A stretch of 64,000 nucleotides of DNA from a virus. The notes below the pieces were generated by a model. It was not told the DNA's origin. It made no database searches and saw only the letters and a list, made by a program, of their open reading frames with translations. Shown here piece by piece: positions 904 to 13,986 of the stretch (position 1 is its first letter; the number at the start of each line of letters is the position of its first letter). Both the position numbers and the translations under genes were made by a program. The stretch lies in the UHGV virus genome UHGV-0057186. One strand, given 5' to 3'.

Positions 904-2586
904 TTAAACCATTACAGTAAATCGACCAACTTTCTTCATTTGAAGGTGCTGACCATATGCTTGTGGGTCATGATCTCTATGCGAAATAACAAAAACATTA
1001 GTATTTTTTAAACTATCTAAAATAGTTGAAATAGCTTTTACACCTTCAACATCGGTCGCTGAATCAAAAACTTCATCAAGAATTAGTGTGTTTATTTTAA
1101 CACCTGAAACTTTTTCAGCAATATCACGCCAAGTAAATAAAAGAGCAATATCAATTCGTGCTTTTTCACCTTGACTGAATGAAGCATAACTAAAATCTTC
1201 ACGACCACGGGATTTAATTGTCTCATTAAATTCTTCATCTAATGTAAACACATAATCCGCTTCCATTATTTTAAGATAATGGTTAATCTGCTTATTAAAT
1301 AATGGAATGTACTTTTTAATAATAGCACCTTTAATACCAGAATCTTTGAGCATATCAGTCAAAATTCCTCGGTGGTATTTTTCCATTACTAAATTAGTTT
1401 TTGTCTTAACAATTTTATCAAGTTCTTCTTGAAGCAGTGCTATTTCATCAGCATGGTCAATAAACTCAGAAGATGCTTTTTCTATAGCCGCTTTAACTTT
1501 TTTAGCTTTATCTACCGTCGTGATTAGAGATTGCTTTTTATTGCGAATATCATTTGCCAACGACTGCTGGGTTTTAATATTATCTCGGTATTCATCAACA
1601 AGAACTTTTAAATTATCACGATGTGTTGAAAGCTGTTCAAACGAATGCGTGCATTCAGAAACTTTATCTTTAATTTTAGAAACAACTTTATCACCGGAAC
1701 TTAATTGTGACAAACAGGTTGGACATAATCCACCTTCGTGATACATATTAATGACTTTATTATACGAGTCAATTTTTGATTTAATTAAAAATGCTTCTTG
1801 ACCGATTTTATTAAATGCATCAGTCGGGTCTTCATCTAAAACAATATTAACTAATCTTTCATTAGCTTCTTCTATTTCCGATTTTAGCGTTCTAGCTTCT
1901 TTTGCCAAATCATCATACATATTTTGAAGACGAGTAAGGTTGTCACCCGTTAATTTTTTCTGGCGTTCAACGTTATCATTATATATTTTAATTTGTTGGA
2001 TAATACTATCTTTTTTAACATCAAGCACTTGGTTTTGTGAATTTAATTCACGTATTAGTGCTTTATTAAGCTTATCCATTTCAGCTAATGTTCCTACCTC
2101 AAGCAGGTCTTCCACAAGCTTTCTTCGTGCAGGGGTCGACAAACCCATGAAAGGGGTATACCCTGCTGTACCAAGGACAACAATCTGCTTGAAACTGGCA
2201 TATGACATTCCGATAAGCTGTTCAAATTCTGCTTGGAAATCTTTACTGCTGGCAGATTCATTAAGACGTGTACCGTTAACGGTGATTTCGAAAACGTTTG
2301 GTTTTTGTCCTCTTTTGATATAGTACTTTTTCTCATCATATTCCATCCACAGTTCAACTAAAAGTTCTTTCTTATTTGTGCTGTTTATTAATTGACCTTT
2401 CTTTACATCACGAAATGGCTTACCAAAAAGCCCAAATGTGATGGCTTCTAGCATAGTAGACTTACCACCGCCATTTCGTCCAGTAATAAGAGTTTTTTGA
2501 ACCTTATCTAATTGAATGTCAATAGGATTTCCACCTACTGACATTATATTTTGATACCTAACTCGGTTTAGTTTAAAATTCTTCAC
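904..2586 (-). CDS. 46: Recombination/repair nuclease subunit gp46 (Rad50/SbcC-like ATPase)
   Basis: 560-aa ORF; Walker A GRNGGGKST near N-terminus, long coiled-coil middle with CPTC zinc hook-like motif, C-terminal signature/Walker B (ILDEVFD); length equals T4 gp46. Confidence 0.93.
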   Translation of the reverse strand: MKNFKLNRVRYQNIMSVGGNPIDIQLDKVQKTLITGRNGGGKSTMLEAITFGLFGKPFRDVKKGQLINSTNKKELLVELWMEYDEKKYYIKRGQKPNVFEITVNGTRLNESASSKDFQAEFEQLIGMSYASFKQIVVLGTAGYTPFMGLSTPARRKLVEDLLEVGTLAEMDKLNKALIRELNSQNQVLDVKKDSIIQQIKIYNDNVERQKKLTGDNLTRLQNMYDDLAKEARTLKSEIEEANERLVNIVLDEDPTDAFNKIGQEAFLIKSKIDSYNKVINMYHEGGLCPTCLSQLSSGDKVVSKIKDKVSECTHSFEQLSTHRDNLKVLVDEYRDNIKTQQSLANDIRNKKQSLITTVDKAKKVKAAIEKASSEFIDHADEIALLQEELDKIVKTKTNLVMEKYHRGILTDMLKDSGIKGAIIKKYIPLFNKQINHYLKIMEADYVFTLDEEFNETIKSRGREDFSYASFSQGEKARIDIALLFTWRDIAEKVSGVKINTLILDEVFDSATDVEGVKAISTILDSLKNTNVFVISHRDHDPQAYGQHLQMKKVGRFTVMV

Positions 2587-2846
2587 AAAAGATTCCTTTT
2601 AATGTATCTTTTAGACCATTCTATCATATCATCATAATCTAAAAAGTATTCATCAAATTCAGCCACGCAAACAACGCCTTGTGCTGTTTTTGATGTAATA
2701 TAAATTATTCCAACATATCTAGAATCTTCTTCGGTATAATCAATATTTGCTATGAATTCATCATTAATGTCAAATGTCGAAAACTTCACAGTATGCATCC
2801 TTAATACAAGATACAGCCATATCTTGTAATGATTTAGGTGTGTCAT
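2583..2846 (-). CDS. Small hypothetical protein (46.1 position); start probably internal
   Basis: 87-aa ORF, 4-nt overlap with gene 46 start. Confidence 0.45.
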   Translation of the reverse strand: MTHLNHYKIWLYLVLRMHTVKFSTFDINDEFIANIDYTEEDSRYVGIIYITSKTAQGVVCVAEFDEYFLDYDDMIEWSKRYIKRNLL

Positions 2847-3033
2847 TATCTAAAATGTTGAAGTTAAAAGATACAGCCCAGTCAGTGCAGACCGTAACCT
2901 TTTTAATACAATTATCTTCAACCTCTAGCGGTTCAAACCAATATTCAATAATTTCTTTATGACCAATATCATCTTTTACTTCGCATTCAAAATGCTGACT
3001 CATCATAACATTTTTAAATTCATCAAAAGTCAT
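2770..3033 (-). CDS. Small hypothetical protein (46.2 position)
   Basis: 87-aa ORF, stop overlaps gene 47 start region. Confidence 0.45.
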   Translation of the reverse strand: MTFDEFKNVMMSQHFECEVKDDIGHKEIIEYWFEPLEVEDNCIKKVTVCTDWAVSFNFNILDNDTPKSLQDMAVSCIKDAYCEVFDI

Positions 3034-4049
3034 TGTGTTGCCTCTACATATAGCTGATTCGCATATTGAATAAGTGCTTCACGGTCAGAATCAGTGATGT
3101 CTGGAATTGCATTAATGTATTCTTCCATCAACGTCTGAAGAGATTGAACTTCAACTTCTTCACTTTCATCTGACTCGACAGAGTTATCAATTTTTGACAC
3201 AACTCGTAATGAATGCACAACTTTTTCTAGTTCAGATTCGAACTTCGTCAGATTTTTGTCTACCTCAGTTACTATAACACGTACTGATAGATTTGTAAAA
3301 TCTTTATAGTCAATTTTTCCTTTAAATGGATAATGAATTCTACGATGCCAGGTAGTATTGTTTGGAATAAATTCCATTCGTTCTGTTTCTGTATCAAACA
3401 TCCAGAACCCACGAGGGTCATTCTCGTCACCTGCAGTTAGTGTCCATGGTGTCCCAATATATCTGACGTTAGCAGCCTCAGAGATAGTATGGAAGTGACC
3501 AGACCACACTTCCTTATAAGTCTTAAGGAAATCAGGTTCAAGACCGTGAGATTTCATTCCTTTATAAAAATAAAATCCGTTCAGTTCCCAGTGACCAACG
3601 CAAAAAGAAGCAGATGAAGTTTTGATGTGTTCAAGAATTTCACCAGTATTTTCTTCACACATCCAAGGAATTAAATCAATTAAACATCCGTCAAAATCTA
3701 CTGTAGTAGGCTTATCATATACTTTAACATTAGGATATTTAGCCAAAAGCTCAGTAGAGGCATTTGGAGTTAAAGTATTTTTAAAGTGCATATCATGGTT
3801 TCCTACAACAGTATGTAGGGTAATACCAGCATCATCAAGCATTTGAACTATTTCACGAGCGAACTCCATAGTTTTATGCGTGATTGCTTTTCGCACATCA
3901 AAAATATCGCCGTATTGAATCCATGTAGTAATTCCATTTTTCTTAGAATATTCTATTGCTTGTTTAATTCCATCCAACTGAATGGATTGAACCCACTCAT
4001 CATCGGCTTTAACGCCTAAATGCCAATCACCTAAATTTAAAATTTTCAT
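3030..4049 (-). CDS. 47: Recombination/repair nuclease gp47 (Mre11/SbcD-like phosphoesterase)
   Basis: 339-aa ORF with calcineurin-like phosphoesterase motifs GDWHLG, GDIFD, GNHD; length equals T4 gp47. Confidence 0.93.
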   Translation of the reverse strand: MKILNLGDWHLGVKADDEWVQSIQLDGIKQAIEYSKKNGITTWIQYGDIFDVRKAITHKTMEFAREIVQMLDDAGITLHTVVGNHDMHFKNTLTPNASTELLAKYPNVKVYDKPTTVDFDGCLIDLIPWMCEENTGEILEHIKTSSASFCVGHWELNGFYFYKGMKSHGLEPDFLKTYKEVWSGHFHTISEAANVRYIGTPWTLTAGDENDPRGFWMFDTETERMEFIPNNTTWHRRIHYPFKGKIDYKDFTNLSVRVIVTEVDKNLTKFESELEKVVHSLRVVSKIDNSVESDESEEVEVQSLQTLMEEYINAIPDITDSDREALIQYANQLYVEATQ

Positions 4050-9439: not shown

Positions 9440-9655
9440 TTAGGCCTTTTTATCAAGAACAGCATTCAGTTTGTTAGTAATTTTATCCAGACGCTCATTG
9501 AACTCGCTAGAAGATAAGCCTTTTTCTGGAGAAATTAAGCTAATCACGAAAAATATAGCAATAAAAGGAATAAGAAAAATAGCACCAACTGCCATAAACA
9601 AAAAGAACGTTACAGTTGTAAGAAAATCAGCTAAACCTTTACGAAATTTATACAT
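9440..9655 (-). CDS. Small single-pass membrane protein
   Basis: 71-aa ORF with hydrophobic segment FFLFMAVGAIFLIPFIAIFFVISLI. Confidence 0.45.
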   Translation of the reverse strand: MYKFRKGLADFLTTVTFFLFMAVGAIFLIPFIAIFFVISLISPEKGLSSSEFNERLDKITNKLNAVLDKKA

Positions 9656-9664
9656 ATTTTACCC

Positions 9665-9889
9665 TTAATTGATTAACCAAGCATTGATAAGCACTAAACT
9701 ATATTGCGAATAAAATTCTGGACCAAAATGAAAAATCATATCATTTATAGTATCCATAATGTAATTCAATTTAATCATGTGTCCACACCCCATCGGTATT
9801 TGACCAAAGTCGCTGATTATCTGATCCTCGCCACAGCTTTTTGGTCGGAAGATTTTTCTCATACTTCCCATCAATAATAACATCAACAT
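9665..9889 (-). CDS. Hypothetical small protein; 5' end overlaps nrdG, true start probably internal
   Basis: 74-aa ORF in different frame from nrdG 3' end. Confidence 0.3.
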   Translation of the reverse strand: MLMLLLMGSMRKIFRPKSCGEDQIISDFGQIPMGCGHMIKLNYIMDTINDMIFHFGPEFYSQYSLVLINAWLIN

Positions 9890-10241
9890 ATTTAAGCATT
9901 TCTAGTTGTTTAATATCTTCAAACTTATATCCTGTCCACAACCAAATGCTTTTATTGGGATAAAGATTTTTAATAGTTTGAACCACAGAGTGAATCACGT
10001 CTCTGTTATCAGGATAGAGAGGGTCACCTCCGGTTATAGTCAATCCTTCTATATAATCATTATTCAAACATTCAATTAATTGTTCTAGTGTTTCACCAGT
10101 GAATGGAACACCATTTCTAGCATTCCATGTTGATTTATTATAACACCCTTCACATTTATGCAAACAACCTGTAACGAAAAGAACGGTCCTGCAGCCAGGA
10201 CCATTAACAAAATCGCAAGGATAAAATCTATCATAATTCAT
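9771..10241 (-). CDS. nrdG: Anaerobic ribonucleotide reductase activating protein (radical SAM)
   Basis: 156-aa ORF with CxxxCxxC radical-SAM cluster motif (GCLHKCEGC); 4-nt overlap with nrdD stop. Confidence 0.9.
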   Translation of the reverse strand: MNYDRFYPCDFVNGPGCRTVLFVTGCLHKCEGCYNKSTWNARNGVPFTGETLEQLIECLNNDYIEGLTITGGDPLYPDNRDVIHSVVQTIKNLYPNKSIWLWTGYKFEDIKQLEMLKYVDVIIDGKYEKNLPTKKLWRGSDNQRLWSNTDGVWTHD

Positions 10242-12055
10242 TGGTGCTTAACCCTATGCATGATTTCTTTATTTTTGCCGAGATTAAATCCGCGTTCGTT
10301 CGGATTTCCCAAATAACCACATGTTCTTCTTATTGTGTTCATCTTTTTAGGATCAGTTTCTCCACAAATAGAACAAACAAATCCGTTTTCAGTAGGAGTC
10401 ATTTCATGGGTACTTCCACATGTAAAACATTTATCTACTGGCATATTAACACCAAAATAATCTAAATGTTGTGCAGCATAATCCCAGACAGCCTCAAGAC
10501 CTTTTAGGTTATTTTTCATATCAGGAAGTTCAACATAAGAAATGTGACCACCTGTCGCAATGAAATGATATGGGGCTTCGCGAGAAATCTTTTCAAACGG
10601 AGTAATATTTTCTTCTACTGAAACATGGAAACTGTTAGTGTACCATCCTTTATCGGTAACATCTTTTACACTTCCATATTTTTCGGTATCAAGTTTACAG
10701 AAGCGATAACAAAGGTTTTCAGCAGGAGTCGAATACAAACTAAAAGCAAACCCAGTTCTTTCAGTCCACTGTTTAAGACGAGCATTCATTTTAGTCAAAA
10801 TTTCTTGTCCAATATCACGACCGACAAGAATATTCAATTCATGAATACCAATGTATCCTAGGGACACTGAACTTCTACCGTTTTTAAATAACTCAATTAT
10901 GTCGTCATCAGGTTTAAGACGAACCCCGAATGCACCTTCTTGGTAAAGAATAGGAGCAACAGTCGCTTTAACTCCTTTTAAGGAATTGATTCTACACATC
11001 AAAGCTTCAAAACACAGATCCATTCGTTCATTGAATAATTCAACAAATTTCTGTTCATTGAATTGTGTTCCAATATAAGAATCTAACGCGATGCGAGGAA
11101 GATTCAGTGTTACAACACCAAGATTATTACGTCCATCAAGAATTTCATTACCAGTCGAATCTTTCCATACGCTCAAGAAACTACGGCAACCCATTGGAGA
11201 AACAGGAATAGATGAACCAGTGATAGCTTTATTGTTCTTAGCTGAAATAATATCAGGATACATTCTTTTGCTTGCACACTCTAGAGCAAGCTGCTTAATA
11301 TCATAGTTCGGATCGTCTTTATAAAGATTAACACCTTCTTCAACGAACATAACAAGCTTAGGGAAAATAGGAGTTATTCCATCACGACCAAGACCTTTAA
11401 TGCGGTTTTTAAGAATTGCCTTCTGAATCATTCGTTCAGTCCAGTCAGTTCCCGTACCAAATGTAATTGTCACAAAAGGCGTTTGTCCGTTTGAACTAAA
11501 GAGAGTATTTACTTCATATTCATAAGCTTGGAATGCGTCATAGACATCTTTTTCTGTCTTAGATTGAGCATAATTCAACGCATCAGCGATTTGCCATTTT
11601 TCTGCATCTTCAACATGTTTTGCATAGGTGCGTTTAACATAAGGAGAAAGAACTTTATCGACATTCGCAAATGTAGTTCCGCCATACTGATGTGAAGCAA
11701 CCTGTGCAGTAATTTGTGCCATAATTGCAGTAGCAACGCCAATTGATTTAGGAGTTTCAATCTGCGCATTACCAAGCTTAAATCCGTTCTCAAGCATTCC
11801 TTTTAAATCTACTAAACAGCAATTAGTAAAAGGCAATGATATACTGTAATCTAAATCATGAAAATGAATTAATCCAACATTATGGGCATTTACAATATGA
11901 CTTGGAAGAATACGACAAGCGATATGTTTAGAAACAATACCGGCCATTAAATCTCTTTTTGTTGGAAAGACGCGAGAATCTTTGTTGGCGTTTTCTGTAT
12001 TTAATTCTTTATCTTTATTTGAAATAAAATTTAAAACATCTTTTTCTAAAGACAT
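10238..12055 (-). CDS. nrdD: Anaerobic ribonucleoside-triphosphate reductase NrdD, uninterrupted (no intron)
   Basis: 605-aa continuous ORF; C-terminal glycyl-radical motif RRTCGYLG and Zn-ribbon CFTCG...CSICG. Confidence 0.92.
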   Translation of the reverse strand: MSLEKDVLNFISNKDKELNTENANKDSRVFPTKRDLMAGIVSKHIACRILPSHIVNAHNVGLIHFHDLDYSISLPFTNCCLVDLKGMLENGFKLGNAQIETPKSIGVATAIMAQITAQVASHQYGGTTFANVDKVLSPYVKRTYAKHVEDAEKWQIADALNYAQSKTEKDVYDAFQAYEYEVNTLFSSNGQTPFVTITFGTGTDWTERMIQKAILKNRIKGLGRDGITPIFPKLVMFVEEGVNLYKDDPNYDIKQLALECASKRMYPDIISAKNNKAITGSSIPVSPMGCRSFLSVWKDSTGNEILDGRNNLGVVTLNLPRIALDSYIGTQFNEQKFVELFNERMDLCFEALMCRINSLKGVKATVAPILYQEGAFGVRLKPDDDIIELFKNGRSSVSLGYIGIHELNILVGRDIGQEILTKMNARLKQWTERTGFAFSLYSTPAENLCYRFCKLDTEKYGSVKDVTDKGWYTNSFHVSVEENITPFEKISREAPYHFIATGGHISYVELPDMKNNLKGLEAVWDYAAQHLDYFGVNMPVDKCFTCGSTHEMTPTENGFVCSICGETDPKKMNTIRRTCGYLGNPNERGFNLGKNKEIMHRVKHQ

Positions 12056-12867
12056 AATTCTAATTTATCCTTTTGAAATTCTTCGTCTAAATATGGGTTC
12101 CAACCCATTTTAAACCTTTTGATGAAATTATCAATTCTAAATTTTGGTAAGTTTAAATCCGCAAAAATAGATGATTTACTTTTAAAATCTGGACTTAAAT
12201 AATCATATAAAATTTCTGCGTATTTTAACCATAATATACAAGTACCAGATTTAATTGCTCTCGGAGTTTTCCAAGGTTTTACACCATACATCGGATTTCC
12301 ACTTCCTTTATGCCTGATAGAAGATGAAATTCCAATTTTAATTTTAGCTTCCTTTGTATGCGAAAATCCACGATGCGGATTTTCTTTCCAGTATTTTTTA
12401 GAAGCTTCTGATATTTTCTTTCTGGCTAAATTAGTATGATGCTTTCCATAAAATCCATGATTTTTGCCTTTATTACGATTTCTTTTAATCATGGTTATTG
12501 ATTGCTTTTCTCTAGTTTCTTTAGAAGGAGAAACACCGTACGTTGTAAATTGACCATCAGCATATGCTAAATTAAAATACTCTTTATTCCATACATCTTT
12601 TTCTATATTCTTTTGAAATTCAGCTTCAATGCTAGTTATTTGTTCATCTCCGACTAATTGAAAATATAATATTTCAACTTTCGGCGTTTCTTTCAACAGG
12701 GCTTTTTGAAATTCGGAAGATGACGAAGACGAATAATAAAATTTACCATTTTTATCAATAATATTCGTTCCGTCAAAAGTGCAATTAGTTTTACTTCCAA
12801 TGTAATAATATGGCGGGGTTTTAGCATTAATTCTATTAATAAATGATAGTTTATATACTACATTCAT
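12046..12867 (-). CDS. Free-standing GIY-YIG homing endonuclease (Seg-like)
   Basis: 273 aa; N-terminal VYKLSFINRINAKTPPYYYIGSKTN (GIY...YIG), downstream NUMOD-like repeats (GKNHGFYGKHHT, GFSHTKEAKIKIGISSS, GSGNPMYG); 10-nt overlap with nrdD start. Confidence 0.75.
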   Translation of the reverse strand: MNVVYKLSFINRINAKTPPYYYIGSKTNCTFDGTNIIDKNGKFYYSSSSSSEFQKALLKETPKVEILYFQLVGDEQITSIEAEFQKNIEKDVWNKEYFNLAYADGQFTTYGVSPSKETREKQSITMIKRNRNKGKNHGFYGKHHTNLARKKISEASKKYWKENPHRGFSHTKEAKIKIGISSSIRHKGSGNPMYGVKPWKTPRAIKSGTCILWLKYAEILYDYLSPDFKSKSSIFADLNLPKFRIDNFIKRFKMGWNPYLDEEFQKDKLELCL

Positions 12868-13337
12868 TTTAAACTCTTTCTAAGCTGCTTCTTGAATGAA
12901 GCTATTAATTGTGTTTTGGTGTCAGATTCATTATATTCAAATCCTCTTTGAAGCATCTCAGCCATCATTTCCTCTTTTCCTAAACGAGAAAATTCCTTTG
13001 ATTTATCTCCAACAAAGTTAGGGTGAATATTATTTTGGGTGTAATCGGATTTTAAATAAGTAAGTAAATTTTCTAACCATTCAAGATAATCAACACCTTG
13101 TCCCTTTAAGCCAGAACGATTAAATTTATGCTTCATTTGACCTTCTGCGGCATTACAGAGATTACAAAGCAATCCACGTACCTTTCCTGCTTTTGGTCCA
13201 TTTAATTCATGGTCATGGTCGAGGTGATTAGCTTGAACATCAGGATTTAGTTCTCGTTGGCAAATTAAGCATTTACCGTTTTGTGCATCATAAAATTTCT
13301 GTTTTTCTTCTTTATATAATTTGCCAGTCAATAACAT
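12864..13337 (-). CDS. 49: Endonuclease VII (Holliday junction resolvase)
   Basis: 157 aa; CLICQRELN...HLDHDHELNG...CNLCN motifs and length as in T4 gp49. Confidence 0.9.
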   Translation of the reverse strand: MLLTGKLYKEEKQKFYDAQNGKCLICQRELNPDVQANHLDHDHELNGPKAGKVRGLLCNLCNAAEGQMKHKFNRSGLKGQGVDYLEWLENLLTYLKSDYTQNNIHPNFVGDKSKEFSRLGKEEMMAEMLQRGFEYNESDTKTQLIASFKKQLRKSLK

Positions 13338-13378
13338 AATAAACCCTTACCTTAAATAGATAAGGGTATTTATTATTT

Positions 13379-13882
13379 TCAAGTATTGTAAAACATTTGA
13401 TTCAATCGCTTATATTGCCGAATCTTTTGGTCAGAAAAAGAAATTTGAGTTTCAAGCCATTCAATGTACTCTGCGGCAGCTTGCATTAAATTTCCTTCAT
13501 AGCCATCGTTATTTTCTTGTGCAGCTAATTTAGCTAATGCGTATGAAATACGTTCACCTTGAAAATCGGCTTTAGGCTTCTGAACAACTTGATTAGTTCG
13601 CTCTACAACTTCTTCAATTTCGCCATTTTCGACTGATTCAGTATTCCACAAGCACCAATACGTAATTGGCTTATCGTAGATGTTAATAATCTTTCCGCCG
13701 GAAAGTTCAATTTCAATAATTCCAGTATCAGGTTCTATATCATCTTCGCATTCTTTTGCAAGTTCACGAACTTTAAAGACAGTACCTGCACTAAGTTCCG
13801 GCCAGTAATTACACAGCCCTGTATCAGCACGATTAATTCTAAACCACTTATCTACTGTAATCATGTCCCATCTCCATATCAA
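13379..13882 (-). CDS. Hypothetical protein at the pin position (possible protease inhibitor Pin; start may be internal)
   Basis: 167-aa ORF immediately downstream of gene 49, as pin is in T4; identity by position and approximate length only. Confidence 0.45.
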   Translation of the reverse strand: MIWRWDMITVDKWFRINRADTGLCNYWPELSAGTVFKVRELAKECEDDIEPDTGIIEIELSGGKIINIYDKPITYWCLWNTESVENGEIEEVVERTNQVVQKPKADFQGERISYALAKLAAQENNDGYEGNLMQAAAEYIEWLETQISFSDQKIRQYKRLNQMFYNT

Positions 13883-13986
13883 TTAAGTCATTTATCGTTG
13901 GTTCATTATATACTGTTTCTTCATCAGTGTAAACCGGTTCTTCCGGCTCTGGCTCTACAGTTTCCCATCTAGCCGCCCACCAAGGT

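Follow-up and report, generated by a model that had tools for sequence, protein, structure and literature searches.

In the virus genome UHGV-0057186 (UHGV; the whole stretch analysed, 64,000 nucleotides (nt) long, is referred to here as the window), a 273-codon open reading frame (ORF) lies between gene 49 and nrdD. Its sequence relationships place this ORF among the free-standing homing endonuclease genes (HEGs), in the SegG branch of GIY-YIG enzymes, as a paralogue of SegG; it is an uncharacterised SegG relative, a new representative of an already familiar type of element. The reading we prefer, with a probability of about 0.72, is that this SegG-branch gene at the 49|nrdD junction is mobile together with the 5' end of nrdD and would target the HEG-less, T4-type nrdD. 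An earlier note on this DNA had proposed free-standing homing, and that proposal gains support from the presence/absence polymorphism of the gene, its patchy distribution, its kinship with SegG, its identity across genera, the associated nrdD tract, and the catalytic Glu, Asn and Tyr residues. The parts of the element are as follows (aa, amino acids).

12046..12867, minus strand: endonuclease ORF, 273 codons plus stop
12535..12867, minus strand: N-terminal catalytic domain, aa 1-111, divergent GIY-YIG of SegG type
12280..12534, minus strand: linker, about aa 112-196, with two NUMOD3 motifs, not in T4 SegG
12049..12279, minus strand: C-terminal domain, about aa 197-273, presumed to serve DNA binding/target recognition, weakly SegG-like
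12864..12867, minus strand: ATGA overlap of the gene 49 stop with the endonuclease start, the left cassette boundary
12046..12055, minus strand: endonuclease 3' end and nrdD start, overlapping by 10 nt
11834..12055, minus strand: foreign nrdD 5' allele, first 222 nt of the gene, the right cassette arm

The family assignment is carried mainly by the catalytic domain. The closest named relative of the first 111 aa among annotated phages (tblastn) is T4 SegG, and segG of RB9 and others were also matched. SegG and the endonuclease are 40% identical over 128 aa (BLASTP, E 3e-27), with the alignment ending at aa ~126, and the twelve residues that are invariant in the family are all kept in the endonuclease and are the same in SegG (Y5, R12, P19, Y22, G24, S25, K26, Y44, S47, E81, N99 and A103). 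The protein was also assigned to PHROG 7504 (phrog_7504), annotated as 'homing endonuclease' (E 1.4e-34). In the linker, Pfam NUMOD3 was matched at E 5.5e-8 in two stretches, the best at aa 130-153, in agreement with the NUMOD-like repeats that had been proposed earlier. The C-terminal domain has the motif pattern PWKTxRA ... GWxPxxDxE[FY], and a profile of it (query, P0002 and P0004) weakly and collinearly matches SegG 133-204 (12.5 bits, E 7e-6 in a one-sequence search). Pairwise BLASTP of this domain against SegG gave no alignment, and the confidence of the AlphaFold2 model is low in this part of the protein.

The catalytic domain belongs to a large and dispersed group. Its profile matches 550 representative proteins at E<=1e-3 (among 1.84 billion), and SegG-type relatives are found as free-standing genes at other sites of T4-like phages, namely 59|32 (P0004 and T4 segG), gp5|5.1 (P0003) and beside rpbA. 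At the gp5|5.1 (the segC position), rpbA and gene 59 junctions, the same SegG-type catalytic domain is seen with differing C-terminal domains; one example of the domain at another junction is a contig from the European Nucleotide Archive (ENA ERZ13617658; L016, 3001-3822). Recombination appears to have joined the SegG-type catalytic domain to differing DNA-binding modules. Two closer identities were considered for the endonuclease and rejected. Similarity to SegH is confined to the linker (E 0.008), and segG itself lies at 59|32 and not at 49|nrdD, so that the gene counts as a paralogue that occupies a new site.

Comparison with T4, DalCa and NBG1 (a Mosigvirus) shows the endonuclease ORF to be an insertion. 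In these three phages gene 49 and nrdD adjoin, the stop codon of the one overlapping the start codon of the other (ATGA), and in the alignment identity extends up to TTTAAAATGA and is followed by divergence. T4 instead has an intron with I-TevII in nrdD, as the earlier note had correctly stated, plus mobC between nrdD and nrdG, and the window is without both. The endonuclease gene was found in 50 of approximately 1000 phage records holding the region, always between gene 49 and nrdD and at 95-100% identity, and in 49 of the 50 the match spans 80% of the gene or more. About 695 of these approximately 1000 records are at least 90% identical, and ~93% of related phages are without the gene. Carriers are known from both Tequatrovirus (the window phage, fPS-2 and Lutter) and Mosigvirus (ST0, AV109 and JK42), and searches for diverged orthologues in IMG/VR (scanned twice) and JGI metagenomes returned near-identical copies only. 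The ORF is intact in all five copies examined, and the ratio of the proportions of non-synonymous and synonymous differences (pN/pS) is 0.05-0.48, which indicates that the ORF is under purifying selection. Given this ratio, the five intact copies and the conservation in 50 records, the ORF is more than a chance feature.

As delimited by the alignments, the mobile unit is a cassette of ~1.03 kb that comprises 812 nt of endonuclease gene and the first 222 nt (74 codons) of nrdD. Nucleotide identities across the region are as follows.

Gene 49, Tequatrovirus vs Mosigvirus: 80-82%
Endonuclease gene, Tequatrovirus vs Mosigvirus: 97-99%
nrdD nt 1-240, window vs ST0: 100%
nrdD nt 1-240, carriers vs HEG-less DalCa/NBG1: 63-65%
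nrdD nt 1-240, DalCa vs NBG1: 97%
Rest of nrdD, all pairs: 92-96%

Among carriers of the two genera, nt 1-240 of nrdD are 95-100% identical. Compared with DalCa in 60-nt segments, the window shows 55-77% identity in the first 222 nt of nrdD and 88-100% downstream, and these 222 nt differ from the HEG-less allele with a pS of 0.75 and a pN of 0.29. The right boundary falls at nrdD nt ~222, directly before the PFTNCCLVDLKG-coding block; past this point the window matches the Tequatrovirus DalCa and JK42 matches the Mosigvirus NBG1. On the left, gene 49 is of host-genus type up to the ATGA boundary, and its last ~30 nt are conserved between the genera. Because the cassette is near-identical in both genera and its flanks are of each phage's own genus type, it has moved horizontally as a unit.

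The association between the gene and the variant nrdD 5' end is nearly complete. The variant is present at >=95% identity in exactly 50 records and identity is at most about 80% in the other 933, and the sets of HEG carriers and of variant 5' ends (50 records each) coincide save for two phages, OLB35 and FL18. For a donor lineage of the variant, nothing above ~75% was found outside the HEG carriers and OLB35. The variant nrdD 5' end is presumed to be a cleavage-resistant allele. A wider signal of exchange is seen downstream, where pS between Tequatrovirus and Mosigvirus (the window, L003, L009 and L011) is 0.1-0.24 in nrdD and nrdG vs 0.67-0.69 in gene 49. The nrdD-nrdG operon appears to have been exchanged or homogenised between the genera far more than gene 49, which is the pattern that repeated endonuclease-driven conversion would give, and which fits the density of endonuclease genes there.

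In intronless homing, the enzyme made by a free-standing gene cleaves the adjoining conserved gene in a competing genome, which leads to co-conversion of the flanks and local marker exclusion (PMC2988022). Applied to this locus, the model would have the enzyme bind and cut the competitor's T4-type nrdD during mixed infection, somewhere in the first ~222 nt. The break would be resected and then repaired from the HEG-carrying genome, with crossovers in two conserved segments, the 3' end of gene 49 and the PFTNCCLVDLKG-coding block of nrdD. The endonuclease gene would thereby be copied along with the diverged nrdD 5' end linked to it, presumably an uncuttable sequence, and markers around nrdD would be excluded locally as a result. 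Deletions and frameshifts would arise as the element later decays.

Three decayed or rearranged copies were identified. In the Mosigvirus OLB35 (MH992122.1, an UNVERIFIED record; L005 2480-2520), the variant nrdD 5' end is present and the endonuclease gene is absent; an 812-nt deletion has left the first 21 nt of the endonuclease gene fused in frame to nrdD codon 8, and the resulting NrdD is still 605 aa long, starting MNVVYKLLYFIS (MNVVYKL). In the Mosigvirus FL18 (PP400780.1; L006 2497-3988), endonuclease aa 1 to ~203 are fused to the last ~19 residues of NrdD, and this fusion is followed by SegH (99% identical to LZ2 SegH) and then nrdG. This arrangement indicates that a deletion in FL18 has removed nrdD as a whole gene from between the two endonuclease genes on either side of it. 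The third copy is on a 4714-nt Logan contig (SRR27536177; L012) from a more distant T4-like phage, where the rearranged region (2188-3180) follows the order gene 49, a 55-codon T4-type nrdD remnant, an endonuclease orthologue, and a complete nrdD with a variant-type 5' end. The orthologue is 55-66% identical and has a frameshift near aa 47-50, and its cassette joins the resident nrdD at nt ~165, after codon 55.

Several observations weigh against the preferred reading. The Pfam GIY-YIG models (PF01541 and PF19835, SegE_GIY-YIG) gave no match at E<=1 to the endonuclease and 18 relatives, sequence searches of the PDB with the single protein and with an N-domain profile returned chance matches only, and Foldseek searches of the PDB with full-length and N-domain models were not significant (I-TevI at E 6-9, TM-score 0.45-0.51). 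In the profile-profile comparison (hhalign), the aligned segment of the endonuclease family has no conserved Arg at the position of I-TevI R27. The linkage between the gene and the variant 5' end is by itself no proof of cleavage immunity, because the 222-nt nrdD tract is ~35% diverged and is inseparable from the endonuclease gene by homologous recombination. The join in L012, which suggests a break position near nrdD nt 165 and is the sole pointer to that position, comes from a single short metagenomic contig, and literature searches found no paper that names or characterises the endonuclease gene. The profile result has an explanation within the family. T4 SegG (L004:1501-2133) also has zero Pfam matches at E<=1 (I-TevII matches PF19835), and the Pfam miss is therefore a trait of the whole SegG branch, in which the test is insensitive. 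SegG-type genes are under-annotated because the branch is invisible to the Pfam GIY-YIG models.

Two other explanations differ from the preferred reading on the target of the gene or on its present state. The gene may be a real homing gene whose recognition or cleavage site is the 49|nrdD junction or a sequence within gene 49, so that insertion disrupts the site and the nrdD 5' end is hitch-hiking from the original donor lineage. The position of the left boundary exactly at the ATGA junction and the between-genus conservation of the end of gene 49 fit this explanation, and the inseparability of the diverged tract makes the linkage silent on immunity. We nevertheless consider it unlikely, given that characterised free-standing T4 endonucleases cut hundreds of base pairs away from their own gene, in the neighbouring conserved gene (PMC2988022), and that in L012 the orthologue is found away from the junction, behind codon 55 of a resident nrdD of T4 type. 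The retention of the variant 5' end by OLB35 after loss of the endonuclease is neutral at best for a junction target. Somewhat less probable again is an inactive or decaying relic, which moved formerly, or was carried passively by ordinary recombination in a recombination-prone region, and no longer cuts. The unconserved canonical Arg position, the failure of Pfam and Foldseek to recognise the domain, the decayed copies in OLB35, FL18 and L012, and the exchange of nrdD-nrdG between genera in any case (pS 0.1-0.24 vs 0.69 for gene 49) are all compatible with such a relic. Against it stand the low pN/pS, the five intact copies and the near-full coverage in 49 of the 50 records, together with the retention of every family-invariant residue, shared with active T4 SegG, which itself fails Pfam.

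A co-opted phage function, besides or instead of selfish spread, seems very improbable. Control of nrdD expression, interference with competitors, or an amplification of anti-defence genes as for SegB could be imagined, and purifying selection and the presence of the nrdD ribosome-binding site and start within the ORF would suit such a role; SegB-driven amplification of anti-defence loci is reported in PMC13096335. However, the gene is missing from ~93% of related phages, OLB35 has deleted it with nrdD still in frame, and no anti-defence-like cargo is apparent in its neighbourhood.

The interpretation of the gene as a SegG-branch homing endonuclease also depends on its active-site residues. 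The GIY and YIG motifs are present as V3-V4-Y5 and Y22-I23-G24, and Y5, Y22 and G24 are invariant in 19 relatives. The earlier note had described a GIY-(x14)-YIG motif; both motifs were confirmed (VVY...YIG), and the spacing was corrected to Y5-x16-Y22. The usual spacing from GIY to YIG is 10-11 residues, and the extra segment in the endonuclease is predicted to form a short helix (aa 10-15). Against canonical GIY-YIG sequences, profile-profile comparison (E 2.2e-5, probability 76%) pairs Y22-I23-G24 with I-TevI Y17-V18-G19, E81 with E75, and N99 with N90. In I-TevI, E75 is the catalytic Glu, N90 is the metal-site Asn, and R27 is the conserved Arg in the first helix after YIG. Neither E81 nor N99 varies within the family or among the five compared copies. 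It had been suggested earlier that loss of the catalytic Arg or Glu would mark a degenerate enzyme. The Glu is kept as E81, and there is no conserved Arg at the R27 position, in SegG likewise. The sole invariant basic residues are R12, between GIY and YIG, and K26, and the same is true of T4 SegG. Since active SegG shares this pattern, the missing Arg is not evidence of degeneracy. A tentative possibility, which we would not favour at present, is that the SegG branch uses a rearranged GIY-YIG active site in which R12, located on the extra short helix between the GIY and YIG strands, replaces the charge of I-TevI R27, possibly with K26. If true, a catalytic residue would have been relocated in a branch that has at least 550 representative proteins and goes unrecognised by curated profiles.

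Expression of the endonuclease gene would depend on its upstream neighbour. Between gene 49 and the ORF, no consensus for a promoter of its own was found, either as a T4 late promoter (TATAAATA) or as a MotA box, and sigma-70-like sites were not above chance (14 found vs 10.2 +/- 2.8 expected). In phage Lutter, the annotated 'promoter' covers the start codon and is therefore unable to drive the ORF. In this respect the gene resembles the promoter-less seg and mob genes, a class of cassettes that includes segC, segF and segG (PMC2988022). Transcription would occur by read-through from the gene 49 promoters, and the gene is probably cotranscribed with gene 49 and translationally coupled to it via the ATGA overlap. 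The AAGGA ribosome-binding site of nrdD is located inside the 3' end of the endonuclease gene.

Among known systems, T4 SegG is the nearest counterpart. SegG is an active free-standing GIY-YIG endonuclease that targets gene 32 (PMC2988022, Table 1), and its gene occupies the 59|32 interval (Liu et al., 2003, cited in PMC2988022). Both genes are free-standing, neighbour-oriented and promoter-less, lie directly upstream of a conserved gene, and are negative for Pfam GIY-YIG. They differ in site (59|32 vs 49|nrdD) and in target (gene 32 vs presumed nrdD), and the endonuclease described here is 63 aa longer, owing to its linker with two NUMOD3 motifs. The annotation of JK42 calls the gene 'SegG', and other GenBank records give 'homing endonuclease'. 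Intronless homing by SegF (Belle et al., 2002) and MobE at nrdA|nrdB follow the same model; however, cleavage sites and inheritance were measured for those systems, whereas the evidence for the present element is its genomic footprint.

The nrdD gene is a known hotspot for free-standing endonuclease genes (PMC2988022), and other elements occupy the same operon. SegH (phages U5 and LZ2) and T4 MobC (HNH) are likewise free-standing but are located at the nrdD/nrdG end, and SegH, a GIY-YIG protein of the canonical Seg type (YIG...DGYMGSG), resembles the endonuclease faintly and in the linker only. I-TevII shares the GIY-YIG superfamily and the nrdD target but is intron-encoded and internal to nrdD. 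The I-TevII type of intron endonuclease and a SegG-like gene can coexist, as in the Yersinia phage fPS-2. In that phage (NC_054943.1; L010 2997-6808), three endonuclease genes surround nrdD: the SegG-like gene upstream, an intron-type gene that splits nrdD, and another 'homing endonuclease' downstream. With the gene in the window, the kinds of endonuclease gene at the nrdD-nrdG operon of T-even phages rise to four, the others being I-TevII, MobC and SegH. The locus offers an unusually clean natural record of intronless homing, with a cassette of ~1 kb, both boundaries defined, two genera and three separate products of decay. Codons 1-74 of NrdD take on a new sequence through the cassette, and FL18 ties two flanking endonuclease genes to nrdD loss. 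These findings will be unsurprising to a specialist in T4 mobile elements.

The genes that surround the endonuclease ORF form a compact block, in the order pin, gene 49, 273-codon ORF, nrdD and nrdG, across 9.7-13.9 kb on the minus strand.

12864..13337, minus strand: gene 49 (endonuclease VII), Pfam Endonuclease_7 and Endonuc-dimeris
10238..12055, minus strand: nrdD, anaerobic ribonucleotide reductase large subunit, 605 codons, without intron
9771..10241, minus strand: nrdG

The anatomy given by the earlier note (a 273-aa ORF upstream of nrdD on the same strand, with a 10-nt overlap) is correct, including its coordinates, and its description of nrdD as a continuous 605-codon gene also holds. 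The nrdD product matches Pfam NRDD over residues 21-604 in one continuous ORF (E 3.4e-171) and also matches Gly_radical, and no match to a group I intron or any other Rfam family was found in 9500..13900 at E<=1. An intron-encoded endonuclease was rejected on the same Rfam result and on the position of the ORF between two genes, overlapping both. Gene 49 is 98.7% identical to T4 gene 49, and on this basis the window genome is classified as a Tequatrovirus. A second copy of the endonuclease gene was not found in the window.

At the other end of nrdD, its stop overlaps the nrdG start (10238-10241), so that the window has no mobC or segH insertion at this junction; such insertions of mobC or segH are seen at the nrdD/nrdG junction in T4, LZ2 and PP01. 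The interval from pin to gene 49 contains a terminator-like hairpin with a T run behind it (13343-13367, minus strand), in a position that matches the terminators annotated in DalCa, fPS-2, Lutter and NBG1.

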